Part shown: one piece after another, positions 3,011 to 50,453 of the stretch
Layout of the letters: every line of letters starts with the position of its first letter
Position numbering within the stretch: the stretch's first letter is position 1
Assembly: GCA_045863855.1 (NCBI GenBank)
Contig: BTVV01000003.1
Span: 1-64,000 of the forward strand
DNA: 64,000 nt
Direction of reading: 5' to 3'
Origin: Planctomycetota bacterium
GTDB lineage: Bacteria > Planctomycetota > SZUA-567 > H5-PLA8
Program-made: the position numbers and the translations under genes
The notes under the pieces: generated by a model
Told to the model about the DNA's origin: nothing
Database searches by the model: none
What the model saw: the letters and a program-made list of their open reading frames with translations, nothing else

Positions 3011-3025
3011 CATACCTTGGACCAC

Positions 3026-4306: not shown

Positions 4307-4316
4307 GTTGTTTAGG

Positions 4317-5355: not shown

Positions 5356-5394
5356 CAGGGCAGCCGTCATCTCGCCGCAGTCCGTTCGCTTTGA

Positions 5395-7880: not shown

Positions 7881-8082
7881 CGGGCTCCTTCGTGACCTCT
7901 CCTGAAGCAGCAGGGGCCGCGAACGTTCGAATCCATCCCCAAATCCTGAAAAATTATCGCACGGGTGCTGCACCTATGGGGTGCGCGCGGTGCGCGATAC
8001 GGTGTCCCGCGTACTGTACCCCACGCCAAGGCTGGATGGCCATAAGGCGCTTGGATGGAATATGAAGGCGGCAGGCCGCGAA

Positions 8083-9747: not shown

Positions 9748-10154
9748 AAGAATCACATCGGCAAAAGGCTTAAACGTAAGAGCACAAGCGCAGTACCGAG
9801 TCTTACCGCAGCCGCATTTCTTTCGCAACCGACCTGTGTAAACCCTTGGCCGAGTGTTGCTTCGTCCAACACATGAATTCGGTTTTTCGCTAAACTCGCT
9901 TGGCAAAACAGCCGACTTAGGAATATATTAAGATGCTTAGGCTAAGGTTGCACGAAATTCGAGCAACTCAGTGCTACGGTAAGTGGTTGGTTTAGGTCGA
10001 TATAAGCAGCAGAAGTACGACCGAGGATGAGAACGAGCAGTGCAGATGTGAGGCCGTGGTACGAGTCGGATGAATCGCTCACGTGCGCGGATGAACGGGC
10101 TGGAGGAGTCTCCAGGGGGCCTGTCATCGCGTGCCCATCAGGGAGGCGCTTTGG

Positions 10155-23150: not shown

Positions 23151-23560
23151 CGCGCAGGTCCAGTTTCCAGATTCCGGATGCCGGTGCACGGCGCAGGCCG
23201 GGTGACGCCCGGCTGGGCGCACCTTGCGCCCAGTTGAATCCGTGCGAGCCCGGGTCGGCCGCCTGGAAAATGGAAAGCTCAGACCGTCATTCCGATTCCC
23301 TGCTCGTTGTGTCAGGAGCGTCCCGGCTTGGATTGGAAATGCACATTGGTGCATTCATTTATGGGGATAGTTCTCTAAGAGGGCGATGCGGGGTGCGTCT
23401 TGGGCCTACGTCTCGGGAGCCTCTGTCCCGGGATCGGGGTGCGGGGAACGGTCTTGCGGTCCGGTTTGAGTTAGGTTTTTGGTTTTGCGTTTTGGTCCGA
23501 ATCCACGGATACTGGGCCACTCCTAACTCAAGAATCGGCAAGACGAAAGGGGCCACAGTG

Positions 23561-26500
23561 ATGGTTCGGCAACTGCTTTCGGAACGACGTGCGGGGAATC
23601 GGTCGACGCGAGCGCGCAGCGCGACGTGGACTTGGGCCTCGCTGTTGCTGTTGGCCCTGTCGGCGGCAGGCGCACAGGCGCAGACGGTGGTGGTGGATGA
23701 CTTCTCTGATGATGGTGGTGGCGCGGAACCTGTGGTGGCCAATTCCAGCACCAACGGGGTGGCCAATGTCGTCACTGGAGCCATAGGCGGCGAACGAGAC
23801 ATTACCATTACGGAGACGGGCGGCGCGAACATCACGGTCGGCGTAAACGGCGGAGGTGGATCGTTCGTCATCCAGTCTCAGGTGGGTGCCATTGGAACCT
23901 ATGAGGTTCAGTACGATTTAACCGATGGAGATGAGACCACGCTCGATTCGGCTGCTGGTTCTGGTTTGGCTGCCCTTAACCTCACGCTTACGTCAGGTGG
24001 AACTCAAAACGCCTTTGTCATTAACATGGCAAGCAATGCGGTTGCATTTACCTCCACCTTGCGGGTTTACTCGGACACCACTGTATTCAGCCGCTTTGAT
24101 ATCGCCTGGCCGGTTTCCGCCGCGCCGTTGCGGCTCGTGATTCCGTACAGCGCATTTGTCACGGGCGGCGGAGCCACGGGTCCGGCGGACTTCACGGCGG
24201 TTACCGCCATCACGCTTTCGGGAACGATTGCAGGCGGCGTGTCGCTTGCGCTCTCCCCAAACTTCGAGACCACGCAGGAAATTACCGCCTCGCTGGTCGC
24301 TAGCCTCCAGGTGGACGTGAACGGCGACGGCTTCTATCAGCCCGGCGACACGATCCGCTACACGGCCACGCTCACCAACCCGGACGACGACGCGAACCTC
24401 GCCATCAACAACGTCGATATCAATATTCCCATTCCCACAGATACGACCTTGGTTCCGGCATCGGTGGTGGCGGCAGGCGGGACGATCAACACGACCAATC
24501 CGGTCAACGTCACCTTCGCGAGCATCGCGGACAACGCCACGGCCGTCGTCACGTTCGATGTCCTGATTGACGATCCGCTCACCAACGCGGGGACCTTCCA
24601 AATCACGGCACAGGGTACGGTCCAGGAAGGACGCGCGACGCAGGACTTCATCGTGGATCTGCTCACTGATGACGAAGAGCCGCCGATGGGTAACGATCCG
24701 ACGGTCGTGGACCTCAACCATTTCATCACGGGTGTGGTCTTCGTTGACGACGATGGCGACGGCTTCGACAACGACACGATGCCGCTGGCCGGCGTCTCGG
24801 TTGAATTGTTGGACTCGGGTGGCACCGCCTTGGTGCCTCCGATTGTCGATATTACCGATGCCGCGGGCGCTTATGGGTTGAGTCCCCCGGCGACTGCGGG
24901 TCCGGACGATTACATCGTTCAAGTGACCCTTCCTGGGGGTCGGGCATTTACGGTGCAGGATCAGACGGTGCCGGCGGCGGACGACACCATCGACAGCGAC
25001 GTGGATACGGGCACGGGACAGACCGCCGTATTCTCGTTGGACAGGGCCACCAACATCGGTGATTTCGATGCCGGCGTCTTCACGCTCGTCACCATCAGCG
25101 GACGCGTCTTCGAGGATGTGGACGGCGACGGGCAGTATGACGGCGGCGTGACCGACCTTGACGAGCCGGATGGGTTTACGGTCAACTTGCTGGATGGCGC
25201 CGGCACGTTCATCACGTCCACCACGACGGCCACCGCCACGTACAGCTTTACCGGCCTCGCCCCTGGCAGCTATATCGTCGAGTTCGACGACGCCAGCTTG
25301 CGCGTAGGCTACGGTTTCACGACCCAGGATTCGGGCGCCGATGCCACCGACAGCGACGCCAATCCCGATTCGACGAGCCTGACGCACGGGCAGACGGCGG
25401 TCATCACGCTCACCAGCGGGGTGGACAACACCACCACCTTCGCGGGTACGGCCACGGCCACCATCAGCGGCCGCATCTTCGACGACCGCAACGACAACGC
25501 TCAATACGGCGCGCCGCCCGATGTGGACGGACCGGACGGATTCACCGTCAACATCTACGACATCAACGATCTGGTCACGCCCTTCGACACCACGACCACT
25601 TCGGGCGGAACGTACAGCTTCCAGCTCCCCCCCGGCGATTACGTCGTCGAGTTCGATCCGGCTGGCCTGGCCCTTTTCGGCACGAACTACACCTTCGTTC
25701 CGGCCGATGTGGGCTCCGACGCCACAGACAGCGACGCCAACGTCACCACCGGCCGAACCGGCACCATCACGCTTCCGGCGGCCACCGTGATCGGCAACGT
25801 CTTTGCCGGCGCGAACAACATCGTCGATCTGACGGTGACCAAGACGGTCAACAACCCGTCTCCTTCCGACGGCGGCACGGTGACCTACACGATCACCGTC
25901 ACCAACAACAGCACGCGCAATACCGCCGCCGCGGTTGAGATTACGGACGACTTAGCGGGCGGTTCGGGCGGCATCACCATTGTGGCGGCCAGTTCGGTGG
26001 CCAGTGCGGGCAGCTTTAACGAAGGCACGGGCGTGTGGGACGGCTTCTCGCTCGCTCCCGGCGCGACGGAAACGCTCACCTACGACGCCACCATCGACTT
26101 CGTCGCCGGCGGACCGCTCATCACCAATACGGTTGTCGTCACCGGCATCCAGGGCGTGGACCCGACGATCGAGGACCTCGACCAGGACGACAACGACGAT
26201 ACGGCCACCGTCTCCGTCTCGGGCGGGGCGATCAAAGTCACCAACATGAACTTGTCGCTCAACTTCAAGAAGCACCTCTTCCCCACGGCCAACCTCACCG
26301 ACACGCTCACCGCGAGCGGTCGGGTCAACTTGGCCGCGTTCGTTACGGCCAGCGTGGACGAAGCCGCGTTCCTCACGGAAGTCCGCTTCTACGCGTTCCG
26401 CGTGGTGGTCGGCACGCCCGGCGGGCCGGTGGACATCACGCTGAATACGCCGATGAAGGCCAGTTCCAAGCTGGTCTCGTGGCAAAGCAACCGCTCGGCT

Positions 26501-27286
26501 CGGCCCAATGTCCGCGCCAGCTTCAGCCCCACGACCGGCGCGTTTAGCGTTTCGATCGTGAACGACGATATCTACGACGCGCTGGGCGCTCCTGCCGCCC
26601 TGAACATGCTTCCGGCGCCGGCCACGGTGGACGTCCCGCTGGCGATCTGCATCGGGCCGTTCAACGTCGATCCGGCCACGGGCGATCCGGCCGAGTACGC
26701 CACGAACAGCCTGGTCTACACGCTGCGCAAGCCCGACACGGTGGGCAAGGGCGCCTTCCGCTTCGGCAGCGTGGGCCAGCCGCCGACGGAGCTGACCTTC
26801 GTCGATTTCCTCGCGATCACTCAGCGCGGGAACGTGATCGACGGCTTCGAGCAGCGCGCGCAGGTCAAGCTCAGCCTGGTCCGCGATCCGATGGATCCGC
26901 TCTTCGATCCGGCCACCTTTGGCGTGGATATCGGCGTGGGCGCGATGCCGGCGGTCACTATCCCGCCGGGTTCGTTTACGGGCACGAACGGGAAGTTCAG
27001 CCTCACCGGACCCGCCGCGCTGGCCCTGGGCTTCAGCCAGGTCAGCTACGACGAGACCCGTTTCATATTCACCTTCACCACGGACTGGCTGCCCGACGGC
27101 ACCTTCGGCGAGACGGCCATCCTGGACGTGCCGGGCGATCCGCGCCGGGCGATCATCGTACCGATCCAGGTCAGCATCACCGACGGGATGGCGACCACGA
27201 CCAACTTCCTCGCGTCCGGCGTCGCCGGCCGCGCGGGCGCGGTCTTCAGCAGCACGGCTCCGACGGTGATCTTCGCCGGACAGTAG
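23561..27286 (+). CDS. Large secreted Thr/Asp-rich surface/adhesin-like protein (DUF11-like and SdrD-B-like Ig repeats)
   Basis: Signal peptide ending AQAQ; PGDTIRYTATLTN and DLTVTKTV..VTYTITVTN (DUF11-like); three ISGRVF.D.DGDG..Y.VEF..DSDA..GQT units. Confidence 0.85.
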   Translation: MVRQLLSERRAGNRSTRARSATWTWASLLLLALSAAGAQAQTVVVDDFSDDGGGAEPVVANSSTNGVANVVTGAIGGERDITITETGGANITVGVNGGGGSFVIQSQVGAIGTYEVQYDLTDGDETTLDSAAGSGLAALNLTLTSGGTQNAFVINMASNAVAFTSTLRVYSDTTVFSRFDIAWPVSAAPLRLVIPYSAFVTGGGATGPADFTAVTAITLSGTIAGGVSLALSPNFETTQEITASLVASLQVDVNGDGFYQPGDTIRYTATLTNPDDDANLAINNVDINIPIPTDTTLVPASVVAAGGTINTTNPVNVTFASIADNATAVVTFDVLIDDPLTNAGTFQITAQGTVQEGRATQDFIVDLLTDDEEPPMGNDPTVVDLNHFITGVVFVDDDGDGFDNDTMPLAGVSVELLDSGGTALVPPIVDITDAAGAYGLSPPATAGPDDYIVQVTLPGGRAFTVQDQTVPAADDTIDSDVDTGTGQTAVFSLDRATNIGDFDAGVFTLVTISGRVFEDVDGDGQYDGGVTDLDEPDGFTVNLLDGAGTFITSTTTATATYSFTGLAPGSYIVEFDDASLRVGYGFTTQDSGADATDSDANPDSTSLTHGQTAVITLTSGVDNTTTFAGTATATISGRIFDDRNDNAQYGAPPDVDGPDGFTVNIYDINDLVTPFDTTTTSGGTYSFQLPPGDYVVEFDPAGLALFGTNYTFVPADVGSDATDSDANVTTGRTGTITLPAATVIGNVFAGANNIVDLTVTKTVNNPSPSDGGTVTYTITVTNNSTRNTAAAVEITDDLAGGSGGITIVAASSVASAGSFNEGTGVWDGFSLAPGATETLTYDATIDFVAGGPLITNTVVVTGIQGVDPTIEDLDQDDNDDTATVSVSGGAIKVTNMNLSLNFKKHLFPTANLTDTLTASGRVNLAAFVTASVDEAAFLTEVRFYAFRVVVGTPGGPVDITLNTPMKASSKLVSWQSNRSARPNVRASFSPTTGAFSVSIVNDDIYDALGAPAALNMLPAPATVDVPLAICIGPFNVDPATGDPAEYATNSLVYTLRKPDTVGKGAFRFGSVGQPPTELTFVDFLAITQRGNVIDGFEQRAQVKLSLVRDPMDPLFDPATFGVDIGVGAMPAVTIPPGSFTGTNGKFSLTGPAALALGFSQVSYDETRFIFTFTTDWLPDGTFGETAILDVPGDPRRAIIVPIQVSITDGMATTTNFLASGVAGRAGAVFSSTAPTVIFAGQ

Positions 27287-31040: not shown

Positions 31041-32408
31041 TTACTCGTAGGTGACGGCTTCCAGCGGGCCGGGGGCCGCGTACGCCCACGCCCACTCGCC
31101 CACGGGATCGACATCCAGTTCGCGCGCCAAGCGTTGAAATTCGGCTTCGGACAGAACCAGCGGCTTGACGGGATCGGCCGGCGCCGGTTGCGCTTCGACG
31201 GGCAGCGGGCGCTTCTCGGCCTTGGCGGGCTCGGGTTCCGGCTCGGGCTCGAGGGAGGCTTTGTACTCCTCGACCGAATCCGCCACCATCTCGGCGACGG
31301 GCAGGCTTTCGACCAGATCCAGCAGCGCCGCGTCGGGCTCCACGTCGTCGGGCGGCGCGACGCCGTCTTTGTAGAAGAACGCGATGTCCACTTCCTCGAA
31401 CGCGACCAGCGCTTCGCGCGCGGCCGCTTTCGGAGCGTCCTGCTTCGGGGCCGCCGCCGCGGCTTTGCGCGGGGCGGGGGAGCGCGCGGCGGCCGGCGCG
31501 ATCTCCTCGAGGTTTTCCTCGGCTTCGTCCTCGTCCGAGCCCACCACTTCGTCGGTGGCTTCGACGTCCAGCTCGTCGAGGTTGACGTTGATCTTGGCTT
31601 CGCGGACCGGCATCTTGTACGGCTCGTCGGAGACGATCTTCCGTTCGCGGCGGCGCAGCCCGCGGTTATCGACTTCGATCGTCTCCGCGTTGGACTCGTC
31701 GAGGTTATCGAGGCCTTCGATCTCGGGTTCGGGCGGAAGCGCGGGCGCGGCTTTCTGCCGGGCGGCCGGCGCGCGGGCGGGCGGAGCGGCTTCTTCGGTC
31801 TCGATCTGCTCGGGCGGCGCGATCTCCATCGGCGCTACCACATCGGCGCCGGCGTCGTCCAGCGCCTCGACTTCCGGCGCGCCGGCTTCGCCGTCGCCGA
31901 CATTCAGATCGGGCTCGGACTCGTCGGGCCGCGCCAGGTTCTCTTCGGTGTAGCTGCGGTCGATCAGTTCCTTGATCTTCGGCCAAGGCGCCTTGAACGG
32001 CTTGACCTTCAGGCGCGTCTTTTCTTCGATGGTGTTGATCGCGCGACGATTGAGCGGGTTGCCCATGACCACGCAAAGCAGATTGCCCAGGCGCTCGAAC
32101 GGGCAGAGCTTGTCGGCATCGCACTGGTCGGCGGGAACCGTCTTGAGCACCGACGAGCCAACCTGGAGATCTTCGCAGTGAATGTCGGTGACTTGGACCT
32201 GCTTGAGCAGCGCGGCGCCGACGGCATGCTCGTCGCACGCGCCGAGGCTGCGCAGGATCTGTCCGATCAGGCCGCCTTCTTTTTCCTGGATCTTGAGCGC
32301 TTTGGCGATCTGCTCCGCCCCCACGTCGCCGTTGTCCTGCAGCAACTGGCCGAGTTGCTTGGAGCGCATGGAAAAGCGCGTGGAGCGCCGTGATGGGCTG
32401 TTCGCCAT
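31041..32408 (-). CDS. MshEN/T2SSE_N-domain protein with acidic disordered C-terminus (no ATPase)
   Basis: KQLGQLLQDNGDVGAEQIAKALKIQEKEGGLIGQIL followed by a GSPII N-terminal fold (LCPFER..VVMGNPLN..I..IE). Confidence 0.78.
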   Translation of the reverse strand: MANSPSRRSTRFSMRSKQLGQLLQDNGDVGAEQIAKALKIQEKEGGLIGQILRSLGACDEHAVGAALLKQVQVTDIHCEDLQVGSSVLKTVPADQCDADKLCPFERLGNLLCVVMGNPLNRRAINTIEEKTRLKVKPFKAPWPKIKELIDRSYTEENLARPDESEPDLNVGDGEAGAPEVEALDDAGADVVAPMEIAPPEQIETEEAAPPARAPAARQKAAPALPPEPEIEGLDNLDESNAETIEVDNRGLRRRERKIVSDEPYKMPVREAKINVNLDELDVEATDEVVGSDEDEAEENLEEIAPAAARSPAPRKAAAAAPKQDAPKAAAREALVAFEEVDIAFFYKDGVAPPDDVEPDAALLDLVESLPVAEMVADSVEEYKASLEPEPEPEPAKAEKRPLPVEAQPAPADPVKPLVLSEAEFQRLARELDVDPVGEWAWAYAAPGPLEAVTYE

Positions 32409-32441
32409 GGGGTCAACACTCTCCCGGATGCGCGTCCCGGA

Positions 32442-33488
32442 TCACTCCAGGACCTTGATCAGCGTCAGCAGGTTTCCGCCGCGCGGGTTGGGGCGGTGTT
32501 CCACGGTGTCCATCGACTGAATCACGCTGGCGAAGCGCTGGTCGGCGTAGATCGAGCCGCCCGCGCCGAAGTCGAACGGCTTGCCGTGGTCGGAAATCTT
32601 GACGGTGAGCGTCTTTCCGTTGGGCACGATCAGCAGGTGGAAGCTGCTCTTGGAATCGCTCTCGTAGGCCAAGTCGATCACGCGCTCGCAGGCATCCACC
32701 ACCGCTCCGCTGATCTGGTCGAGGTTATCGCCGTTGAATCCGCAACCTTCGGCACAGCGCGCGGCCAGTTCACCGACACCGCTCAGCAGTTCCTTGCGCG
32801 TGGGCAGGCTGAGTTCGACGGGCGTGCCCTTTTTGGAAGCGAAGAAGCGGACCTTGCCCGTCGGTTCGACGGCCAGCACCGTGCCGCAGCGCGGGCACTT
32901 GTACTTACCGACGGCCGGAATATCGAGCGTCACGCGGCAGCGCGCGCACTGGGCCTGAGTCGGGAACGCGGCCGGAGCCGCGGCTGCGGGGGCCGGAGCG
33001 GGCGCGGCGTGCGCCGCCGGAGCCGCGTAGTGCGAAGGGGTCGCCGGGTAAGCCGGGGCCGCCGGAGCGGGCGCGGCGTACGACGGCGCCTCCTGATGCA
33101 CTTTCACCGAGGCCGGCGGCGCGGTTTCGCCGCTGAAGCTGCGCAGCGCGGTCGCCTCGTCCGGAACGATGTTGAAGAGTGCGTTGAAGCCCAGCATTTC
33201 CATCACGAGCATGACCTTGCTCGGTACGCGGCAGAACGCGATATGCCCGCCGATCGATTCGAACGTGTCGGCGTACTTGAGCAGCGTGCCCAGACCGGTC
33301 GAATTGATGTACTTTACGCTGGTGCAGTCGAGGATCAGGTTCTTGACGCCGCGCTCGATCAGCTTGTCCATGACCTGCTGGAACTGCTGAATGGTCGTCG
33401 CGTCGATGGAGCCGTCGATCTCGGCCAGCGTCGCCGTGGTTCCCGAGGGGGACTTGATGACTTTGACTCGAAACTCAATGGATGCCAT
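32442..33488 (-). CDS. STAS anti-anti-sigma + Zn ribbon + degenerate RsbW-like HATPase fusion
   Basis: STAS GSIDA..LILDCTSVKYINSTGLG; Ala/Pro linker; CARC..CPRC; KISDHGKPFD..MDTVEH. Confidence 0.88.
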   Translation of the reverse strand: MASIEFRVKVIKSPSGTTATLAEIDGSIDATTIQQFQQVMDKLIERGVKNLILDCTSVKYINSTGLGTLLKYADTFESIGGHIAFCRVPSKVMLVMEMLGFNALFNIVPDEATALRSFSGETAPPASVKVHQEAPSYAAPAPAAPAYPATPSHYAAPAAHAAPAPAPAAAAPAAFPTQAQCARCRVTLDIPAVGKYKCPRCGTVLAVEPTGKVRFFASKKGTPVELSLPTRKELLSGVGELAARCAEGCGFNGDNLDQISGAVVDACERVIDLAYESDSKSSFHLLIVPNGKTLTVKISDHGKPFDFGAGGSIYADQRFASVIQSMDTVEHRPNPRGGNLLTLIKVLE

Positions 33489-33563
33489 GACCGCTCCACC
33501 TCACCCTGCGCGCGCCACCGGTTGTCGTTCCGCCCCCCACGGCCCTGGACCGGGCCTCGCGGG

Positions 33564-34670
33564 TCAGGCTTTCTGGATGTACTTCGTCAGCGTGATTTTG
33601 TTTCCGGCGTAGTTGTACTCCAGCTTGTCGACGCAGCGCAGCATCAGCATGATGCCCAGCCCGCCGGCGCCGCCGGCCAAGTTGCGTTCGCGCGCCGCTT
33701 CCACCGGGTTCCCGCCCACGCCGCGGCTCAGGTAAATCTCCGTGTCGAAGCCTTCGCCGTCGTCCATCACCGAAACCGTCACCTTCTCGCGGTCCACGAA
33801 GTATTGGATATCGACGGGCCGCGCTTCGTTGTACTTGTTGCCGTGCCGGGAACCGTTGTCCACGGCTTCGCGGAACGCGATCGCCAGCGCCTCGCGCGAC
33901 TCTTCGGGCAGCCCCGACTGCTGCAGCATCTCGCCGAACAGATCGTTGCAGCGCTCGATGCAGTCTTCCTTCGTCTGCAGGCGGAAATGAATCGAATGGT
34001 CGAAGTAGTTGCGTTCCTCGGCGAAGCGCGCCAGCTCCGACTCGGCCAGCCGCACCAGCTCGGAAAGCTCGAACGGCTCGACGATGGACTCGTCGTGCTG
34101 GACCTGCAGGCCGGTCACGGCCTGCGGATCTTCGCCTTCCGCGAAGATGCGGACGATGGCGATCATGCTCGATTCTTTGCGCTTCTTGACCGCTTCGCAG
34201 ACCTTCCACGGTTCGGAGAGTCCGACGTCTAGCACCACGAGGTCGGGCGGCTCTTTGCGCAGTTGAGCGACCGCGTCGTCTTCGCCCTGCACCACCGTCA
34301 CGTTGCTGCGCGGGCTCGTCAGCCGCGCGGCCATCACGCCGGTGAAAAAATTCTTCTTCGGGACCACCAGCAGAATCTGGTAGACGCCCGTTCCTTCAAG
34401 CTTCTTGCGGAACTCTTCGTCGAGATCGAGATGCACGCGCCGCACGGCGGGCAAATGCATGTTGGAACCCGCGGCGCTTTTCGCCGCCACGGTTTGCCCC
34501 TGCTTCAATTGGACGGTGAGGAATTGTGGCAGTTCGATTCGGTTGCCGCGCTGAAGTTCTTTCTTCATCACGTCAATGGCCCGGTCCAGCACCGCCAAGG
34601 CCGTGGCTTCGGGCTGATTCAGCTCCTGAGCCACGCGCTGTGCCAGCTCGGGTGTCGATAGGCTCTTCAT
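33564..34670 (-). CDS. HU/IHF-like domain + receiver-like domain + RsbW/SpoIIAB-type anti-sigma Ser kinase fusion
   Basis: ELAQRVAQEL..LDRAIDVMKKELQRGNRIELPQF (HU-like); PDLVVLDV (REC); EAVDNGSRHG, DDGEGFD, GGLGIMLM (HATPase_c_2). Confidence 0.85.
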   Translation of the reverse strand: MKSLSTPELAQRVAQELNQPEATALAVLDRAIDVMKKELQRGNRIELPQFLTVQLKQGQTVAAKSAAGSNMHLPAVRRVHLDLDEEFRKKLEGTGVYQILLVVPKKNFFTGVMAARLTSPRSNVTVVQGEDDAVAQLRKEPPDLVVLDVGLSEPWKVCEAVKKRKESSMIAIVRIFAEGEDPQAVTGLQVQHDESIVEPFELSELVRLAESELARFAEERNYFDHSIHFRLQTKEDCIERCNDLFGEMLQQSGLPEESREALAIAFREAVDNGSRHGNKYNEARPVDIQYFVDREKVTVSVMDDGEGFDTEIYLSRGVGGNPVEAARERNLAGGAGGLGIMLMLRCVDKLEYNYAGNKITLTKYIQKA

Positions 34671-34784
34671 GTACGCCTCGCGCTCCGCAACACCCCCAGC
34701 GCCGGGTCTCGGCCCGGCGTCTGCCCCAACTCGAATCGCCAATAGAGCTTCTAGTATACTGCCCCGCGTGCATTCCGGTCAATG

Positions 34785-35408
34785 CTACTTGTGCCGAGCT
34801 ACCCGCGCGAACAGTTCTTCCCGAGAGATCACCTGCTTCTCGGCCAAAAGCTCCACCAGCGCCTTCAACAAAACCGTCGGCGCCACCTCGACCCGGCCCT
34901 TGGCGCCGCCCGAACCGGCCGCCGCCGCCACGCCGCCCGAAGCACGGTACGCCGCTTCGGCTTCTTCCAGCTCCGGGTTGGATCTTCCATGACAGTAGTA
35001 GTCGATCGCCTTTTGGATATCCAAGCGCGTCGAGACCGCCAGATCGGTCCGCAATCCGGTTAAAAATCGAATCTCATCGATGGCCGCGAAATCGAGCGGA
35101 TCGGAAACTGCCAGGATCAACGCATCTTCGGTCCGGCGCAGGGGAAGCAGTTGATGCTTTTCCAGCACCTCTACGTCGATCAGCGCCGAGACCTGCGGCG
35201 AGACCACCAGGTCTTTCAGGCCCAGCATCGGGAGGCCCATCTGCTTGCTCATAAGCTGCGTCAGTTGCTCTTCGGTGACGTAGCGCAGCTTGGCCAGGAT
35301 GACCGGAAGCTTACCGCCGACCTGCTTTTGAGTATCCTGAGCGGTCTGTAGTTGTTCGGGCGTAACCAAGCGCGCTTGAGTGAGCCATTCGGCCAGCTTA
35401 TCGCTCAT
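34785..35408 (-). CDS. Stand-alone MshEN/T2SSE_N-domain protein
   Basis: KLAEWLTQARLVTPEQLQTAQDTQKQVGGKLPVIL..KHQLLPL..LAVSDPLDFAAIDEIRFLTGL; short C-terminal helical domain (LVELLAEKQVISREEL). Confidence 0.82.
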   Translation of the reverse strand: MSDKLAEWLTQARLVTPEQLQTAQDTQKQVGGKLPVILAKLRYVTEEQLTQLMSKQMGLPMLGLKDLVVSPQVSALIDVEVLEKHQLLPLRRTEDALILAVSDPLDFAAIDEIRFLTGLRTDLAVSTRLDIQKAIDYYCHGRSNPELEEAEAAYRASGGVAAAAGSGGAKGRVEVAPTVLLKALVELLAEKQVISREELFARVARHK

Positions 35409-35633
35409 CGTGCAGCCCCTTTCGCCTGAGCCCATATCTATGCGGCTCGGAAACGGAAGATTCATAGCTGTCAAGGCTTTACGGAAACTAGCCAGGACCG
35501 CGAAGACTGTCAAGCCTTTTCATGCTTTACGTACGGGCATGAGATAGGTCGCGATCTGCATCGAATGTGCGGCAGGCGGAAAAAAGATTTCGAGCGGATT
35601 CAGGCGGGACTTGCAAAGGCCTGTGCGCCCAGA

Positions 35634-38600
35634 TCAGCGCAACTGGGACACCAGACCTTCCATTTCACGGGCGACCTGCAGGAACTGATCGCCTTGCTTG
35701 TGGATCTCTTTGATCTTCTGGTCCGAGGCGTTCATGCCGCCGTCCACGCTCACTTCGCCGATCTCGCGGCTGTGGTGCGGTTGAGCGGTGGTGCTTTTTA
35801 GTTCATTGCCCTTCGAATTGATCTTTTTGCGCACTTCGTCGAGGCCGCGGCGCGCGGTGTCTTTTGCGCCGTTCGAGGTGGCCTGAGCCAGACGATCGGC
35901 TTCCACAAAGCGGCTGGCCAGGATCTCCTGGTTGGCTTGCGCCAGGTTGCCTTGCACGGCGTTAACCGTACCCTGGAGTTCCGGTTCGTAGTTGCGCGCG
36001 ATGGACTTGCGCAGAAGCGTGCGGGCGCTCTCGATCGTCTGCTTGGCCCGGTCGACATCTTGCTTGGCTTTGGACATGTTTCCTAAAGCCAAAGCGAGCG
36101 TGGCCAATTCGCCGGGATTGGCGCCCACTTTACGCACCGCGCTATCGGCCGCGGACTTGGCTTGATCGTAGTTACCGTTATTAACCGCCGAGGTGACGGT
36201 CGGCCAGATTTCGGCTTTGGCCAGGCGGATTTTGCGTTGGTGAATGGCGGATTGAACTTGGCTGATGAGTCCGTCGGCTTCCTGGACGAAAGGCGGCCCA
36301 TTGGTCTGGTCTTTGGCGAAGACCGTTCGGGCGGCCGTCGCTTTTTCCAGCGCCGTATCCAGGCCATTGTCTCCTTGCCCGTAGGCCGTGCGCGCGGCAG
36401 TCATGAGTTCCTTGAACGCGGCCTGATTCTTTTCGAACTCGATCTGAAGCTGGCGCTGCACTTTGGCGTTGGCCAGCAGCGGTTCGTACCCCGCCTTGCC
36501 CAAGGCGTTTAGTTCGATCAGCGACTCGTAGGTCTTGATCGCCCCGGCCCAGTTCTTGCCGGTCTCTTCCTGCTTAACCTGCGTCTCGAGCTTGTTCGTT
36601 TCGCGCGACTTCTTCAGGTGCGTATCGAGGTACTCGCGGATTTTCTGGCCGACGGCGGGCACCTTTTGCTTGCTCTCTTCCAGCTTTTTCAGGGCTTCGC
36701 CGTACTTGCGGTCCGCGCGTTCCAGTTCCTCGACCGCGCTGAACGCTTTCAATTCCTGCAGCGCTTTTTCGCCCCGCACCGCGTGCTCCTGGACCTCCGC
36801 CAGCACGTTGCGGAACGCCACCGCGGCTTGGGCGACTTCGTCGCTGCGATGCTTAAGCGCCTCGGCGTAGGACGTCCGCGCTTCACTTGCTTTGCGGGCT
36901 TCGAGGTACGAATCGCCGGAGATTATGGCGTTCTTGTACTGGAGGAGATTGTTCAACAGCCCCAGCTTGGCGTCGAACTCGCCCCGCTTTGCCGGATGTT
37001 CCTGGCTCAAGCCCTTGAAGATCTCGATGGACTTGGCGTAATCCTCCTGGGTTTCCGCATCCAGCCCCTGCTTCTCCAGGTCCGCCAATTCCTTCAACTT
37101 CATTCCGAGGTTCGCGATCTTGGTTTCCAGCTCTTTGATAAGTTCGGCCTGATTGGAATCCTTCGCCAGCGCCTGCGCGCCTTGGAATTCCTTAAGCGCG
37201 GCTTCCCATTCCTTATTCTCTTCCTGCTTGGCCGCTCCCACCATCTTGGATCGCGAGCGGGCCGCCGCCAGTTTTTGCGTAGCCGGCACGTCGTCGGGCT
37301 GTTTCTGCAGCGCTTCTGTGTAGTACAGTTCGGCGTCCTGGTACTTACCGTCGCGCATGCGCGAATCGCCGTCGCTGACCAGCCGGACGTAGTCCTTGCC
37401 CTTGAAGACTGCCTCACGCGCCTGCTGGAGTTGCGTCTTCAAGCCTTCGTCGTCCGGAATCATGCTCGAAGCCAGCGCGATCTGGCTCAGCGCGCTTTCC
37501 AGTTCGCCCTTCTCCTTAAATTTGGCGGCTTGGTCCAAGTACCCGTCGGCACGCGCGCGCGCCGACTCTTTGAGCAGGATCTGGCGCAGTTCGTCGTCGT
37601 TCCCCAAGGCCAGCGAGGCCGCTTGGCGCAAATTCTCCGAAGCCGTTTCGAAATTCCTGCCTTCGGCCAGCGTCTTGGCGGTCGTTCGCAGGCGCTCGAT
37701 GTCGATGCGCGCTTTCCAGCGGGCGATGTGAGCGGCAGCGGCTTGGTAATCTTCCTGCCCTGCTCGCTCGGCGAAATCGCGCGCGCCTTCGAAATCCTGC
37801 TTCTTGGCCGCGGCTTCCATTTCGAGCATGGCCTTCTCGAATTTCACCTTCGACAGCAGCGCCGCGGCTTCCTTGGTGGAAAGCCGTTTTTGCTCCAAGG
37901 AATCCGTTTGCGTGAGTATTGAAATCAAGTTTTGCCAGTCCGCATCGGACTTCTCTTTTTTCTTGTAAATCTCCAGGGCCTCATCCAGCTTTTCTTGCAC
38001 GACCAGGAAGCCGGATTCGGTCGCCCGCGTCAGTTCGCCGTCGGTGTGCTGGTAGAGTTCGCTGAGCAGTTTGCTTGCGGCGAAATCGCGCTGCGCCTGG
38101 TAGGCCAGGTTTTTCGCTTCCTTGTAGCGCTTGGCGTCGATGAGCGTGCGGACTTGGTCCTGGGTCTGCGTTTCGATCCCTTTCAGCGCGTCCTGCTCCA
38201 GCTTGAGGAGCGATTCGTCTCCGCTGAAGCGCTGCAACGCGTCCTTGGCCATGGCATAGGCGTCGGAGAACTCTTTCTTGTCGATCTTGCCTTGGACTTC
38301 TTCCGTCCAGCGCCCGCGGATATCGTCCTTTAGCTTCAGCAACGAGCTGTCGTCGCGGAAATCGCCCAAAGCGTTGGAGACCGTTTTAAGCGCTTCTCCG
38401 AAACGTCCGTCGGCCATCTTCTGGTTGGCCTCATTGACGTATTCGTTCAGCCGGGAATTCCGGTACGCCCAAAAGCCTCCGCCGGCAACGACCACCAAAA
38501 GCGCCGCGGCGGCGACGCCGATCCAGAGGAAGGAGCTCTTGGCGCTGGGGCCGCCCGGCCCCGTCGGCGTGGCGGGCGTATACCCGCCGGGCAAGGGACC

Positions 38601-39761
38601 GGGGCGCGGCGTGTGCGTCCCGCCCGGGCCGTGGATCATCGTCGGTTCGAAGCCCGTGGTCGCGCGAGCCGTCCCAGGCGTGGACCCGGATGCGCTCGGG
38701 CCGCTGGGCGGCGAAATCAGCGTCGGCGTCATGGCGTCGCCGTAGGTGCCCGGCGTCGAGACCCCTTGGCCGCCCTGCGTCGAATAGACCGATCCGCCCG
38801 TGGCCGTTTGAGGCACCTGGGTCCGCTGTGTCATCGGCGTCGGACCGGGCGTCATCTCGCTGGGATCGAGGTCTTTGGCCGCCGGAATCGAGGCTTCGAT
38901 CACCTTCAGGAAATCGAACTCGGAGGGCGGCTCGGGAACGATCTTTTTGGCCTTCTCGACATCCTTGAACAGCTCATCGGCCGTCTGGTAGCGGTCCTCG
39001 CGCTTCTTGGCCATCAGCTTGAGGACGATGCGGCAGGTTTCCTCGTGCAGATTAGCCACGAGCGTTCGCGGATCGGGTACCGCTTCGAACTTATGTTTGT
39101 ACAACACGCCCAGCGCCGTGGGCGCCGTGAACGGCGGCTGTCCCGTCATCACCGCGTAGAAGGTGGCGCCGAGCGAATACAAATCGCTGCGTACGTCGGC
39201 CACGTCGCCGTCGCACTGCTCGGGGCTCATGAACGTCGGCGTGCCCAGGAAGGTTCCGGTGCGCGTGAGATGCGATTGGCTGGAGGACTCGAGCACCAAG
39301 CCGAAGTCCACCAGCTTGAGCGTGCCTTCCTGATTGACGAGCATGTTCTCGGGCTTGATATCGCGGTGGATCAAGCCGTGCTTGTGCGCGCCGCCCAGCC
39401 CCTTGGCCGCCTGTGCGAGGCAGTCGAGCATCACCGATTCGGGCAGCGGCCCGTAGTCGCGTACGATGCCGCCGAGGCTCGCGCCTTCGATCAGCTCCAT
39501 CGCGATGTAGTAAAGCCCTTCGGCTTCACCGGCGTCGTGGACGGCAACGATATTGGGGTGGTTCAAGTTCGCGATGGCGCGCGCTTCCCGCATGAACCGC
39601 GCGACGTATTCGGGCGAACGGGTGAACTCGCTGGGAAGAACCTTCAACGCGATTTTGCGGCCGAGCGTGGTGTGCACGGCGCGATATACGCTGCCCATGC
39701 CGCCGGCGCCGATTTTGCCGACGATCTTACAGTTGGCAATAACTCGTGCACTGCTTTCCAC
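35634..39761 (-). CDS. Hanks-type Ser/Thr protein kinase with TM helix and large TPR-like helical extracytoplasmic region
   Basis: IGAGGMGSVY, ALK, HRDIKPEN, DFG, GTPTFMSPEQ, SDLYSLG; Pro/Thr linker; TM LWIGVAAAALLVVVAGGGFW. Confidence 0.95.
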   Translation of the reverse strand: MESSARVIANCKIVGKIGAGGMGSVYRAVHTTLGRKIALKVLPSEFTRSPEYVARFMREARAIANLNHPNIVAVHDAGEAEGLYYIAMELIEGASLGGIVRDYGPLPESVMLDCLAQAAKGLGGAHKHGLIHRDIKPENMLVNQEGTLKLVDFGLVLESSSQSHLTRTGTFLGTPTFMSPEQCDGDVADVRSDLYSLGATFYAVMTGQPPFTAPTALGVLYKHKFEAVPDPRTLVANLHEETCRIVLKLMAKKREDRYQTADELFKDVEKAKKIVPEPPSEFDFLKVIEASIPAAKDLDPSEMTPGPTPMTQRTQVPQTATGGSVYSTQGGQGVSTPGTYGDAMTPTLISPPSGPSASGSTPGTARATTGFEPTMIHGPGGTHTPRPGPLPGGYTPATPTGPGGPSAKSSFLWIGVAAAALLVVVAGGGFWAYRNSRLNEYVNEANQKMADGRFGEALKTVSNALGDFRDDSSLLKLKDDIRGRWTEEVQGKIDKKEFSDAYAMAKDALQRFSGDESLLKLEQDALKGIETQTQDQVRTLIDAKRYKEAKNLAYQAQRDFAASKLLSELYQHTDGELTRATESGFLVVQEKLDEALEIYKKKEKSDADWQNLISILTQTDSLEQKRLSTKEAAALLSKVKFEKAMLEMEAAAKKQDFEGARDFAERAGQEDYQAAAAHIARWKARIDIERLRTTAKTLAEGRNFETASENLRQAASLALGNDDELRQILLKESARARADGYLDQAAKFKEKGELESALSQIALASSMIPDDEGLKTQLQQAREAVFKGKDYVRLVSDGDSRMRDGKYQDAELYYTEALQKQPDDVPATQKLAAARSRSKMVGAAKQEENKEWEAALKEFQGAQALAKDSNQAELIKELETKIANLGMKLKELADLEKQGLDAETQEDYAKSIEIFKGLSQEHPAKRGEFDAKLGLLNNLLQYKNAIISGDSYLEARKASEARTSYAEALKHRSDEVAQAAVAFRNVLAEVQEHAVRGEKALQELKAFSAVEELERADRKYGEALKKLEESKQKVPAVGQKIREYLDTHLKKSRETNKLETQVKQEETGKNWAGAIKTYESLIELNALGKAGYEPLLANAKVQRQLQIEFEKNQAAFKELMTAARTAYGQGDNGLDTALEKATAARTVFAKDQTNGPPFVQEADGLISQVQSAIHQRKIRLAKAEIWPTVTSAVNNGNYDQAKSAADSAVRKVGANPGELATLALALGNMSKAKQDVDRAKQTIESARTLLRKSIARNYEPELQGTVNAVQGNLAQANQEILASRFVEADRLAQATSNGAKDTARRGLDEVRKKINSKGNELKSTTAQPHHSREIGEVSVDGGMNASDQKIKEIHKQGDQFLQVAREMEGLVSQLR

Positions 39762-40322
39762 CAGCGAGCAACCTTATGTAAGGGTGGCGGATGCGAGGCG
39801 GTCCTGGGCGAATACCCAACCATCCGCCAGACCGGAAAGATCCCCGGCGGTCGCCTATCGCCTTACGCTCCTTATCGTTGGATTTCGTCTCAATGCAATC
39901 CTATTTTCGGAGCCAATCTCTACAGGGTGAGGTATGGCTTTGCCGAGACCCCATGCAGGTGAAGTGAGGATGAAGAAAAATAACACTTGTTCAGCACGCG
40001 TCGAAAGCTAAGAGCGGGTGTTGTCGGCCTTCGAAATCACGTAAATGGTTGTCGGCAAAGGGTACTCATGGCTGTCCAAAATGGAGCAGTCGAACTCCGA
40101 ACATGTGCAAGCGAGGGTCGATTTGACTCTCGAAAAATGAGTAAGCAGGGTCGCCGTGTTTCTGTAAAATGTTTCAAGTAAAGGGATTACAAGCAAAATG
40201 AGGACTCTTTATTATGCGCGAAACCATATTGACTTCCGATGGAAGGTCGTTAGATTCTTTGCATCTTGCTACTCGGCAGTAACTGAATTGGCCGTATGCA
40301 CGGTCCTTGGAGGGGCTGCAAC

Positions 40323-41942
40323 ATGCAGAGCCTGGTTCGTTTGTGGGTCTTGTTCGCGGTGTTGGGCTGTGTAGGCCTGATCGCTGCGGCAGAGGGCGTT
40401 TCCGATAAAGATCTCTCGGATGTGAAGAAGGAGATCGAGTCGCTTCGGGCGCGCTTGGCCAAGAAGAATTCGACACCCACGACGGCGGGTCCGATCGGTC
40501 GTGCGAACGATCTGGTCGACAACAAGTACGGCCCGAACTCGACGGTGACCACTAAGGACGGCAAGCTCACGATGGGCGGGCTGGTCCAGGTGTGGTGGTA
40601 CAACATTCAGAACGATTCGAAGGACTTCCGCGCGGTTCCGCCGGCGCTTGGCGGGCAGACGGGCGAAGTGAGCGATAACGACGGTTATCGCGTTCGCCGC
40701 GCCGAGCTGAAGTTCACCTTGGACATCACTCCTCATATTACGGCGGTGGTGATGATCGACCCGACGGGTCAGGACGAGTTCAACTCGTTCCCAGGCGCGC
40801 CGACGAACCAGGGCATCGTGATCAAAGGCCAGTCGGAATCGGCCTTCATGGGCAGCATGCCGTTCAACAACTTGGTTGGCCCGCGCAATCCGATCTTCGG
40901 CGGGAGCAATTCGAGCTCGAACAGCGACCCGGCCAATCCGCTGGGCGGCGGCACGACGGACGTGACTCGCGTGCGCGTGCAGAACGGTACGGTCGTGGCG
41001 AACCGCCTGCTGCAGGACGCGTACATCAACTACCACCCGCACTTCATGCCTGAGCACGACTTCACGATCGGCCAGTTCAAGCCTCCGATGAGCGAAGAAG
41101 GCTGGCGCAACACGGGGCAGCTCGACTTTGCCGAGCGCGCGATGATCAACCAGTTCCCGAACCAGCGCGACTTGGGCCTGATGGTCCACGGCACGTGGTG
41201 GGAAGGCCGCTTCCAGTACTGGTTGGGCGCGTTCAACGGCGCCGGTTCGTTCCAGAACACGTTCGGCGGCTACCAGAACCGCTCGGATGACAACGATCCG
41301 TTCGATGTGGCTTGGCGCGTGCAGGTTCGCCCGGTTTGGCACAACGAAACTTGGGGCAGCTTGGAATTGGGCGTCAGCCGCCAGGACGGCGTGCACGGCG
41401 AAGCGAAGCGCGGCGGGAACTTCCTCGGCGGGGACCCGCTGGACGGCCTAGGCTTCACCGAGACGCATGCGTTCCGCCAGTGGGCGTGGGCGTGGTACCG
41501 CCCGGGTTCGGTGATGCGCGGCTTCTGGTTGCGCGGTGAGATCGGGCAGATGAAGGACCGCTTGCAGCCGATCTTCCAGAACGATCCCAACAGCTTCGAA
41601 CGCCACGGCTGGTACGCGGCGGTTGGGTACCACCTGGGTCAGAGCATCTGGGCGGACGATCTGGAGAACGGCGGCTGGTTCTGGAAGATGATGAAGGATG
41701 TGGAGTTCGCCTTCCGCTACGAGCAGTTCCAGAACATGATCCTGGAAGACCTTGACAATCCCAGCGTCGAGACGGACCGCTTCAAGAGCGAGGCGATGAC
41801 GGTGGGCTTCAACTACTACTGGAAGGGCCACAACGTCCGCTCGCAGGTCAACTACATTTGGGTCAACGAGCTGGAGAGCGATGCCCGGATTCGCGAGGTT
41901 CACAACAATACGTTCATCGTGACCCACCAGGTTCAGTGGTAA
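40323..41942 (+). CDS. Outer-membrane porin (phosphate-selective OprO/OprP-like beta-barrel)
   Basis: Signal peptide; RVRRAEL, LQDAYINY, IGQFKPP, LDFAER, RDLG, GFNYY; aromatic C-terminus HQVQW. Confidence 0.8.
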   Translation: MQSLVRLWVLFAVLGCVGLIAAAEGVSDKDLSDVKKEIESLRARLAKKNSTPTTAGPIGRANDLVDNKYGPNSTVTTKDGKLTMGGLVQVWWYNIQNDSKDFRAVPPALGGQTGEVSDNDGYRVRRAELKFTLDITPHITAVVMIDPTGQDEFNSFPGAPTNQGIVIKGQSESAFMGSMPFNNLVGPRNPIFGGSNSSSNSDPANPLGGGTTDVTRVRVQNGTVVANRLLQDAYINYHPHFMPEHDFTIGQFKPPMSEEGWRNTGQLDFAERAMINQFPNQRDLGLMVHGTWWEGRFQYWLGAFNGAGSFQNTFGGYQNRSDDNDPFDVAWRVQVRPVWHNETWGSLELGVSRQDGVHGEAKRGGNFLGGDPLDGLGFTETHAFRQWAWAWYRPGSVMRGFWLRGEIGQMKDRLQPIFQNDPNSFERHGWYAAVGYHLGQSIWADDLENGGWFWKMMKDVEFAFRYEQFQNMILEDLDNPSVETDRFKSEAMTVGFNYYWKGHNVRSQVNYIWVNELESDARIREVHNNTFIVTHQVQW

Positions 41943-44850: not shown

Positions 44851-44966
44851 ATTGGCCTGGGGACCCTTTTTAGTCCTTGTTTCGAGACTATAATGATACG
44901 TGCACGCACTGACTTTGGGTGCGTTCGGCGGTGTAAAGACAGTAGAGTCACCCCTTGGACGCTTCG

Positions 44967-46631
44967 ATGCTTCCGATTCGCCATCCCCACAGCCTATTCG
45001 TTCTGCTCGCGGCGCTGGCGCCGTTGGTTTGTCCGGGCGCGGCGCGGGGCGGCGAGGTCTCGGCGGATTCTCCGGAGAGCGGCGATTGGCTGCGGGTGGA
45101 GCCGTCGGATTTCACGGTGGTCTGCCGCGAGGACGGCTGGCTGCTTCCGGTCAAGGTGACGACGATCGGGTTCATGACCTCGGGCAGTCTGGCCTGGATG
45201 GTCGAAGAAGGGACGCGGGTGAAGAAGGGCGATACGATCGCGCGGCTGGATACGGCTCAACTGGAAACCACGATCGAGGCGATTCGGGACGAGCTGGCGG
45301 TGGCGGAGCGGGATCTGGCGCAGCAGCAGCAGGCGCGCGAACTGGAGGTGAAGCGCCTGGACGCGGAGTTGCAGGCGGAGCGCGACAAGGCGGCGCTGGC
45401 CGAGATGAAAGAGCGCGAGGCGATCGAGCATCCGACGGAGCTGGAGCGCGAAGAGGCGGCGAATTTGAAGGCGGGGGCCGAGGCGCGGGTGGCGGCGGCG
45501 CGCGCGGACTGGGAAGCGATGCGGCCGCTGATCGAGAAGGGCTACGCGAACCGTTCGGATCTGGAAGCGAAGGAGTTGGCGCTGAAGCTGGCGGAGACGG
45601 AGCTGGAGCGCGCGCAGATGCAGGCGCGTGCGATCCTGGACGGCGCGCGTTCGGAAACACGGCGGCGGGCGGCGCTGGAGCGCTTGCAGGCGGAGACGGC
45701 GCTTAAACTGAAGGATCTGGACCGGCGGTTGGCGCTCGAGAAGCTGGAAGCGAAGATTCAGAGTTTGCGTCACAAGCTGAAGCGGGTGGTGGAGAAGCGC
45801 GACGACCATATCGAACGGCTGGAGCGCTGCACGCGCACGGCGCCGCACGACGGCATCGTGGTGTACCGCGAGATCGGCTGGCGGAGCAAGAAGAAGGTCA
45901 CGCTGGGCGAGCGGGTCAACGAATGGCAGCCCCCGTTCGATCTGCCCAGCTACGACAAGATGAAGGTCCGGACGCAGGTTCCGGAAAGCGTGGTGCGGCA
46001 GCTTAAGGCGCGGCGCGAAGGCCAGGCGGGTTCGAAGGCGCTGGTGCGGATCAAGACGCTGCCGGACGTGGTGTACCACGGGGAAGTGACCTGGATCGAC
46101 GGCTGGGCGCGGGACCGTAACGCCAAGCTTTCGGACGCGGACATCAAGGCGCAGGGTCTGGCGGGGCTGCGCGTCTTCGACCTGGAAGTGGAACTCGAAG
46201 AGAGCGATCCGACGCGGCTGCGCGAGGGATTCAAAGCAAGCGTCGCGTTCCCGATCGAGACGCTTCCGAATACGCTGGCGGTACCGCGGCAGGCGGTTCG
46301 TTACGCGGGGCGGCAGGCGGTGGTCCGGGTGGCGGGGGCTTCGGGGGGCTCGGATCGTCCGGTGACGCTGGGTCCGGAATCGAACGGGCAGGTGGTGATC
46401 CGCGAGGGCTTGAAGGCGGGGGACCGGGTGTGGGTGCCGCCCGCGCCGGTGGAACGCGAAGCGCCCACGGCGGGTCCGGCGAAGGCGACGGCGGCTGGCG
46501 GAGGGGCTCCGGCGGCCGGCGGGGGCAACGGGGACGCGGGGGCGGCGCCGGCGGGGAAGACCGGCGGGGAAGGCAAACGCCGCGGCGGCGGGAAGCGTGC
46601 GGGAGGAGGCGGCCCGCCGGCGGGGCCGTGA
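44967..46631 (+). CDS. Efflux membrane-fusion protein (HlyD/MacA-like) 1
   Basis: Signal peptide; lipoyl halves VEEGTRVKKGD and APHDGIVVY; long coiled coil; LAVPRQAV..GLKAGDRV. Confidence 0.88.
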   Translation: MLPIRHPHSLFVLLAALAPLVCPGAARGGEVSADSPESGDWLRVEPSDFTVVCREDGWLLPVKVTTIGFMTSGSLAWMVEEGTRVKKGDTIARLDTAQLETTIEAIRDELAVAERDLAQQQQARELEVKRLDAELQAERDKAALAEMKEREAIEHPTELEREEAANLKAGAEARVAAARADWEAMRPLIEKGYANRSDLEAKELALKLAETELERAQMQARAILDGARSETRRRAALERLQAETALKLKDLDRRLALEKLEAKIQSLRHKLKRVVEKRDDHIERLERCTRTAPHDGIVVYREIGWRSKKKVTLGERVNEWQPPFDLPSYDKMKVRTQVPESVVRQLKARREGQAGSKALVRIKTLPDVVYHGEVTWIDGWARDRNAKLSDADIKAQGLAGLRVFDLEVELEESDPTRLREGFKASVAFPIETLPNTLAVPRQAVRYAGRQAVVRVAGASGGSDRPVTLGPESNGQVVIREGLKAGDRVWVPPAPVEREAPTAGPAKATAAGGGAPAAGGGNGDAGAAPAGKTGGEGKRRGGGKRAGGGGPPAGP

Positions 46632-46641
46632 GTGGGCGAGG

Positions 46642-50440: not shown

Positions 50441-50453
50441 GGGTGAGGTCGAG

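Follow-up and report, generated by a model that had tools for sequence, protein, structure and literature searches.

A four-gene module of two ATPase-less MshEN proteins and a fused RsbW-type kinase/STAS pair, conserved in Planctomycetota without a linked sigma factor

Partner switches have been described chiefly as a means of controlling sigma factors, and the MshEN domain chiefly as part of pilus ATPases. In a stretch of 64,000 nucleotides (nt) from a Planctomycetota bacterium (GCA_045863855.1, contig BTVV01000003.1, positions 1-64,000; hereafter the window, to which plain coordinates refer), genes of both kinds stand side by side. Five open reading frames (ORFs), all on the minus strand, code for a Hanks-type Ser/Thr kinase, a short MshEN protein (MshEN-1), a fusion of HU, receiver and RsbW-type kinase domains (HU-pseudoREC-RsbW, hereafter the switch kinase), a STAS protein with a zinc ribbon and a degenerate GHKL domain (STAS-Zn-pseudoGHKL, hereafter the STAS protein) and a longer MshEN protein (MshEN-2; Table 1). 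The conserved unit consists of the last four genes (35408 to 31041), not of all five. The initial annotation had pointed to a module linking MshEN proteins without an ATPase to an RsbW-kinase/STAS pair without a linked sigma factor or phosphatase; this linkage is conserved, and no description of it was found in print, though such fusions could be listed in the architecture tables of PMC5013675 and PMC5499826.

The switches RsbW/RsbV/SigB and SpoIIAB/SpoIIAA/SigF of Bacillus (PDB 6m37, 1tid and 1til) share with the module a GHKL kinase with intact N, G1 and G2 boxes and a STAS acceptor Ser, and the structure models of the switch kinase and the STAS protein fold onto the Bacillus RsbW, SpoIIAB and SpoIIAA structures. 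Unlike the Bacillus proteins, the partners in the module are multidomain fusions, the STAS domain being joined to a zinc ribbon and an apparently dead GHKL domain, and two MshEN proteins are linked to them instead of a sigma factor or a PP2C phosphatase. The module thus has the kinase and the acceptor of an RsbW/RsbV-type system and lacks the linked SigB/SigF-type sigma factor. Leptospira LvrC (PDB 9qih) has, like the switch kinase, a receiver fused to an RsbW-type Bergerat domain. According to the available part of its description (PMC13269768) this receiver is canonical and is phosphorylated by LvrB, whereas that of the module lacks the Lys, the Thr/Ser and the acid pocket and does not conform to a canonical response-regulator receiver; unlike LvrC, the switch kinase also carries an HU domain and has no linked histidine kinase. 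Outputs other than release of a linked sigma factor are described, in the available excerpt of PMC8256260, for the kinase/STAS pairs BtrU/V/W of Bordetella, of which BtrW acts on a secretion machine, and SypE/SypA of Vibrio fischeri. In this they resemble the module; unlike it, they have in that excerpt a single-domain STAS protein and a dedicated phosphatase, and no MshEN, HU or pseudo-kinase domain. CapK/CapS (available excerpt of bioRxiv 10.64898/2026.02.02.703251) also consists of an anti-sigma-like kinase and a STAS substrate, both with extra domains and without a sigma factor. CapK is a helix-turn-helix-STAS-GHKL protein which senses single-stranded DNA (ssDNA), and CapS a STAS-winged-helix repressor encoded beside immune operons, without MshEN, unlike the module, whose architectures differ from these and whose neighbours are housekeeping genes. 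None of the excerpted accounts of BtrU/V/W, SypE/SypA and CapK/CapS contains MshEN partners, a STAS protein fused to a pseudo-kinase or an HU-fused kinase.

MshEN is the N-terminal adaptor domain of PilB/GspE ATPases. The two 24-residue motifs of Vibrio cholerae MshE and of GSPII-B of Thermus thermophilus PilF recur in MshEN-2, whose second motif starts with Leu as in PilF GSPII-B. Unlike MshE and PilF, the MshEN proteins of the module have no ATPase and have unrelated tails, and MshEN-1 of this genome lacks both motif Gly residues; the motif for binding cyclic di-GMP (c-di-GMP) is therefore present in MshEN-2 and not in MshEN-1, and neither protein is a secretion ATPase of the PilB/GspE/MshE kind. 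As in fusions of the HU/IHF superfamily (PMC5499826), the HU fold of the module kinases is a domain of a larger protein and is sometimes found in tandem; the words kinase, receiver, STAS and sigma do not occur in the main text of that survey (word search). A 2026 preprint on predatory planctomycetes does not mention pili, STAS or c-di-GMP (word search).

Gene neighbourhoods were compared across Planctomycetota in a panel of 401 genomes, 147 of which matched the switch kinase at E ≤ 1e-25. Ninety-five homologous loci were read, 93 of them with a strong anchor (61 HU-type, 26 STAS-type and 6 unassigned); tallies are from a six-frame recount, from which two loci (L051 and L053) were left out as too distant. 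Related genomes are not independent, and the linkage and co-occurrence counts are descriptions rather than statistical tests. The genes for MshEN-1, the switch kinase, the STAS protein and MshEN-2 were all together in 18 of the 95 loci. These come from close relatives, from another three families of the same class and, beyond the class, from two genomes (L077 and L087) with the STAS gene in inverted orientation and head-to-head with MshEN-2. A full-length orthologue of the Hanks kinase was adjacent in only five of the 95, all in close relatives from two identity tiers, so the synteny initially expected of the whole cluster held for four genes and not for the fifth. Other than in the four-gene loci, the module genes survive as two pairs. 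Of the 58 HU-type loci with enough sequence upstream, 50 had MshEN-1 immediately before the kinase. Of 19 loci with an unlinked STAS gene, 7 paired it head-to-head with an MshEN gene, and six of these seven MshEN genes carried a terminal motif with Trp like that of MshEN-2. A profile of this C-terminal motif added four more loci in which an MshEN-2-type gene is head-to-head with the STAS gene, and matched in 14 of 36 module genomes and in none of 20 genomes without the module.

The kinase family was present in 84 of the 87 panel genomes having the STAS-Zn protein (E ≤ 1e-30). Conversely, the STAS-Zn protein was present in 40 of 44 genomes with a fetched HU-type kinase, and in only 4 of 21 whose fetched kinase was a self-contained STAS-REC-RsbW protein. 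The named protein homologues are all from Planctomycetota, the phylum whose genomes were searched, and the relatives with record titles are metagenome-assembled genomes of this phylum. The module is conserved over dozens of mostly uncultured Planctomycetota families and is kept even in genomes of 2.1-2.6 Mb. The recurring neighbour families (dcw, thrS-infC-rplT-pheST, dnaA-gyrB, carB and clpX) are housekeeping genes, lineage-specific in their occurrence, and give no clue to the output.

The N, G1 (DxGxG) and G2 boxes are textbook features of GHKL kinases, and in the switch kinase E268, N272, G305, G307, G337 and G339 were invariant in 67 of 67 aligned rows and D303 was kept in 66. Family scans matched its HU domain (PF00216, E 3.6e-8, over cut-off), its receiver (2.5e-6, below cut-off) and its GHKL domain (HATPase_c_2, 2.7e-18). 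Canonical receivers combine an acid pocket and a phospho-accepting Asp with a Thr/Ser and a Lys. Here D148 was kept in 62 of the 67 rows, Pro stood at the acid pocket in 54, Glu or Gln had replaced the Lys in 66, and the Thr/Ser column held an aromatic residue or His. Because acid pocket, Lys and Thr/Ser are replaced, canonical phosphorylation of this receiver would, by established receiver chemistry, be unlikely. The structure model of the kinase (predicted local distance difference test score 87.6) had LvrC (9qih, E 9e-13) as its top Foldseek match, followed by SpoIIAB/RsbW, receivers and HU; the HU domain had profile matches to HU and IHF. In many distant orthologues the HU domain is repeated in tandem, or STAS stands in its place. 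The replacement of HU by STAS in 26 paralogous loci suggests that the HU slot may be a swappable dimerisation or input module. A complex prediction for the kinase dimer with MshEN-1 scored 0.03 and was not used for or against binding.

Several relatives of the switch kinase have other arrangements. Tandem HU-HU-pseudoREC-RsbW forms of 440-470 amino acids (aa) occur in many other lineages (L079:2052-3398, L083:9464-10885 and L101:9055-10404), often beside dcw or thrS-infC-rplT-pheST clusters. The paralogous one-protein switch STAS-pseudoREC-RsbW was found in 26 loci (including L090, L091, L099, L105, L110 and L111; for example L090:5617-6903); the acceptor Ser is retained in most, six copies are still behind an MshEN-1 gene, and the genomes carrying it are mostly without the STAS-Zn protein. 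The genome of the window itself encodes a REC-RsbW paralogue (C10:62156-63184).

The STAS protein matched STAS (1.4e-16; TIGR00377 over cut-off), has a CxxC..CxxC ribbon and gave a weak match to HATPase_c_2 (5.2e-7). The predicted phospho-acceptor, Ser63, which is preceded by Asn, and the four zinc Cys were invariant in 30 of 30 rows. Its models fold like RsbW/SpoIIAB and SpoIIAA, and hhalign of its GHKL domain to the kinase family gave 97 %. Because the G2 box is missing from all 30 rows and the N-box Glu from 28 (present in two), the domain is, judged by its residues, a catalytically dead pseudo-kinase. Two proteins of the module are unusual in design, one joining a STAS substrate to a dead version of its kinase and the other putting an HU fold to use on a kinase. 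A stand-alone STAS protein encoded elsewhere in the genome (C6:46433-46903) is 40 % identical to the module STAS. Weaker Zn-pseudoHATPase homologues, mostly at E 1e-8 to 1e-27, were found throughout two families (f19, 23/23; f32, 16/16) in which the kinase had no match, and this sister family therefore has another partner.

No ATPase domain (Pfam T2SSE) was matched in MshEN-1 or MshEN-2. MshEN-1 consists of the MshEN domain and a conserved C-terminal helix pair, and the C-terminal Trp of MshEN-2 was nearly invariant in 28 rows. The motifs were judged as two stretches of 24 residues with Gly3, a hydrophobic cluster and Gln24. In the available text of PMC5013675, a bulky residue in place of either motif Gly abolishes binding of c-di-GMP, and the Arg is dispensable; in that of PMC11731258, Lys or Leu at motif position 1 gives nanomolar binding. 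The corresponding residues of MshEN-2 are intact (G20, Q41, G49 and Q70), both Gly and both Gln being present in 26 of 26 rows of the class, and position 1 is Gln or Pro in motif 1 and Leu or Met in motif 2. Both essential Gly of MshEN-1 are replaced in this genome (A6 and P35). The c-di-GMP connection initially proposed for both proteins accordingly stands for MshEN-2, through which c-di-GMP input is plausible from the motif, and falls for MshEN-1 of this genome.

Because of the linkage, the co-occurrence, the intact kinase and acceptor residues, the intact MshEN-2 motif and the non-sigma precedents, we tentatively read the four genes as a sigma-independent, c-di-GMP-linked partner switch acting post-translationally on the type IV pilus machinery, a reading which as a whole we place slightly below an even chance. 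The dimer of HU-pseudoREC-RsbW would phosphorylate Ser63 of the STAS protein, which is very probable. The dead GHKL domain may pair with the active kinase by the usual beta1/alpha1 dimer face and tether the substrate, a step for and against which the arguments seem about equally strong. The kinase might be switched by docking of MshEN-1 or MshEN-2 on the pseudo-receiver/HU module rather than by a histidine kinase, and here too we are evenly divided. MshEN-2 is predicted to read c-di-GMP, and probably does, and MshEN-1 would serve as an adaptor. PP2C phosphatases were not among the recurring neighbours of the four-gene unit, and four SpoIIE domains are encoded elsewhere in the genome; one of these unlinked SpoIIE phosphatases would reset the switch. 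That the switch acts, through the MshEN domains, on the pilus motor or on its position at the pole, with an output at the protein level, is possible and somewhat doubtful. A broader picture makes the module an ancient signalling hub of deep-branching Planctomycetota. In it, the partner-switch kinase would be bound to its own substrate as a heterodimer of kinase and pseudo-kinase, free-standing MshEN adaptors and c-di-GMP would take the role of a histidine kinase in gating it, and the hub would position or switch multiple PilT/PilB surface-motility motors without a sigma factor; this picture is speculative and rather unlikely to hold in full. If the partner-switch reading is true, the module would be a first candidate regulator of c-di-GMP-dependent surface behaviour in these lineages, and as all its parts are soluble it could be studied in vitro without culture of the host.

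The genome encodes, in trans, several PilB/PilT ATPases and four GGDEF domains. When 46 module genomes were compared with 10 genomes of the same families lacking the module, PilT was found in 46/46 and 3/10, respectively, and a FliA/WhiG match in 40/46 and 10/10; one of the six module genomes without this match is a single contig. GGDEF was found in all 46 module genomes. Five single-contig genomes of one genus lacked both the module and PilT, and at least five PilT copies were present in 57 of 84 module genomes, compared with 16 of 251 genomes with neither gene. The module tracks PilT-rich genomes better than it tracks FliA-type sigma factors, weakly. Against the proposed switch on the pilus machinery stand several observations. 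GGDEF was also found in the 10 genomes lacking the module and was universal in the 56 tested, and PilT is nearly universal in the phylum (381/401), so that presence or absence cannot discriminate; the link to pili is weak because of this and because the contrasts rest on few independent lineages or losses. No pilus gene recurred in any neighbourhood, PilB being nearby once (L103), and two FliA/WhiG sigma factors (over cut-off), flagellins and the four SpoIIE phosphatases are encoded elsewhere in the genome. Motif 1 of MshEN-2 in the window starts with Gln, outside the published consensus, and outside the class the c-di-GMP motif of MshEN-2 decays as its C-terminal motif persists. The short C-terminal profile did not find MshEN-2 in 22 of the 36 module genomes, and the two-motif signature of MshEN-1 was complete in only 14 of 52 orthologues, for example in that of L036. 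Elsewhere in this genome a separate and more conventional cluster (C15:37423-41737) has genes for GGDEF, SpoIIE phosphatase, RsbW and STAS, and is a candidate trans source of c-di-GMP and phosphatase.

The four genes might instead form a classical anti-sigma switch with its sigma factor encoded elsewhere, the kinase sequestering a FliA/WhiG-type or a primary sigma factor, the STAS protein releasing it and the MshEN proteins tuning the exchange by c-di-GMP. The best structural match of the kinase, LvrC, is a Rec-Bergerat anti-sigma candidate, the two FliA/WhiG sigma factors and the match in most module genomes would fit, and in the available excerpt of PMC8256260 an unlinked Rsb system of Chlamydia acts on the primary sigma factor. 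Nonetheless we consider this explanation unlikely, as neither the 95 kinase loci nor the 20 STAS loci had a sigma gene among their recurring neighbour families, no SigB/F/G was over cut-off in the genome (TIGR02980; genome 94 % complete), and FliA/WhiG was the gene not found in some module genomes and present in all of those compared without the module, a test which covers neither extracytoplasmic function (ECF) nor primary sigma factors.

HU and IHF have a basic beta-arm with an intercalating Pro. If the HU domain bound or sensed DNA, the kinase could be a nucleoid-bound regulator and the switch could act directly on chromosome binding or transcription, by analogy with CapK/CapS. HU is kept throughout the HU-type kinases and duplicated in many lineages, the HU part of the model matches Anabaena HU (Foldseek, 1p71), and CapK is, in the available excerpt of its preprint, an anti-sigma-like kinase activated by ssDNA. 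The arm motif with Pro was present in 17 of 58 orthologues, all of them among 34 distant rows, and L088 is one with the arm intact; it was absent from 24 of 24 rows of the class, where the HU fold is thus found without the arm, and the HU domain here has a net charge of +2, whereas the true HU of the genome is at +7 and retains the RNP arm. With STAS also replacing HU in the paralogous loci, this explanation is quite improbable, and DNA binding, an output suggested initially, is weakened. More improbable still is the five-gene pathway of the initial annotation, by which the membrane Hanks kinase passes an envelope signal into the switch. The gene is adjacent and co-oriented in the five close relatives, and in a related family (P0243 and P0267) STAS-Zn-HATPase is fused to a Hanks kinase; the HATPase of that family, however, looks active, and the family is a paralogue. 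Among the 16 four-gene loci with room upstream the Hanks kinase was beside four and absent beside 12, a predicted promoter is conserved before MshEN-1 whatever gene precedes it, the 6.9 Mb genome encodes 83 Hanks kinase ORFs, and kinase-transmembrane-TPR proteins are, in the available part of PMC11032199, common and lineage-expanded in Planctomycetota. The genes could also be two independent pairs (MshEN-1 with the kinase, and the STAS protein with MshEN-2), adjacent in the class by chance. The pairs are usually unlinked outside the class, the STAS-Zn gene adjoining the kinase in 30 of 57 HU-type loci; but they rejoin in the other orientation in two lineages (L077 and L087), the kinase and STAS genes stand together in a third (L107, L125 and L126), MshEN-2 is directly upstream of the kinase in L097 (C-terminal profile), and the two families co-occur in nearly all genomes with the STAS-Zn protein. 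Since kinase and acceptor are moreover complementary, chance adjacency has very little probability.

Since the Hanks kinase is adjacent in so few loci, has a conserved predicted promoter downstream of it and is one of many in the genome, it is with high probability a lineage-specific neighbour and not a member of the module, to which it had at first been assigned as an envelope Ser/Thr kinase. Its kinase domain (residues 13-263) has the catalytic motifs and is followed by one hydrophobic helix (approximately 411-430); its TPR matches are weak and sub-cutoff (E 0.014-0.028). The extracytoplasmic C-terminal region was matched in 5 of 19 related genomes, and other kinases near distant loci match it only in the kinase domain. 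A paralogue in the same genome (C59:17198-20365) is 32 % identical over approximately 930 aa. The proteins P0243 and P0267, in which STAS, a zinc ribbon and an RsbW-type HATPase that looks active are joined to a Hanks kinase, have an undescribed all-in-one architecture.

In all nine upstream regions examined, the start of MshEN-1 is preceded, at -98 to -136, by TTGACA with a TA..T-like -10 hexamer. The copy in the window lies between the stop codon of the Hanks kinase and MshEN-1, and its -10 is under the threshold of the promoter scan. The secondary site before the switch kinase gene is retained in the two closest relatives and missing where the gap is short. Metatranscriptome contigs (four runs, two studies) of a 96 %-identical relative include one contig over the four genes, from 30970/31003 to 35127-35466, with the Hanks kinase and carB on separate pieces and no bridging to the four-gene contig among the pieces listed; such contigs fit the promoter but do not show transcripts, and were not counted as evidence. 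In the stretch 35484-35441 a second TTGACA, 39 nt past the first, is part of a CCGTAAAGC-TTGA element common to six of the nine upstream regions and is a possible operator or second promoter.

The features were catalogued by ORF reading and scans with Pfam and NCBIfam, which bore out the five co-oriented genes and their main domain architectures (Table 1) as initially described. In the details that description needed amendment, as the receiver is atypical, the second HATPase is a pseudo-enzyme, the TPR matches are weak and the predicted promoter splits off the Hanks kinase. The gaps between the genes are, in the order of transcription, 225, 114, 75 and 33 nt, and the cluster is flanked by carB on one side and by a porin gene, rpsO and pnp on the other. 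As had been noted at the outset, the cluster contains no sigma, PP2C or pilus gene, and none was found among the 31 further window ORFs scanned. A scan for terminators was uninformative (16 sites, 16.4 expected).

Table 1 Genes and promoter-like sites of the cluster, in window coordinates
Feature	Coordinates	Strand	Remarks
Hanks-type Ser/Thr kinase, 1375 aa, single transmembrane helix, periplasmic helical-repeat region	35634..39761	-	Pkinase, E 1.3e-47
Predicted sigma70-type promoter of the four-gene unit (TTGACA, 17 nt, TAGTTT)	35485..35513	-	Found in 9/9 upstream regions
MshEN-1, 207 aa counted from the conserved ATG	34785..35408	-	Pfam MshEN, E 1.4e-22
Secondary promoter-like site before the switch kinase gene (TTGACC, 18 nt, TATACT)	34753..34782	-	10/12 match to consensus
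HU-REC-RsbW (switch kinase), 368 aa: HU-like 1-95, atypical receiver 96-220, RsbW/SpoIIAB-type GHKL kinase 226-368	33564..34670	-	
STAS-Zn-pseudoGHKL, 348 aa: STAS, Pro/Ala linker, 4-Cys zinc ribbon, predicted dead GHKL 218-348	32442..33488	-	
MshEN-2, 455 aa: MshEN, long acidic Pro/Ala linker, Trp-containing C-terminal motif	31041..32408	-	Pfam MshEN, E 3.6e-9

Elsewhere in the window, three tandem HlyD-type membrane fusion proteins are followed by a MacAB-type ABC transporter (44955-51725), and a 1350-aa SdrD_B/DUF11 surface protein is encoded at 23234-27286. The region 1-10757, of lower GC content (56-61 % over the first 6 kb), has short ORFs without Pfam matches, a LexA/S24 repressor and two large orphans (5395-7803 and 8083-9906), and is possibly the remnant of a mobile element. 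In the RNA runs, contig depth was greatest over a phosphate-porin-like gene (40296-41942), a depth which does not rank expression.

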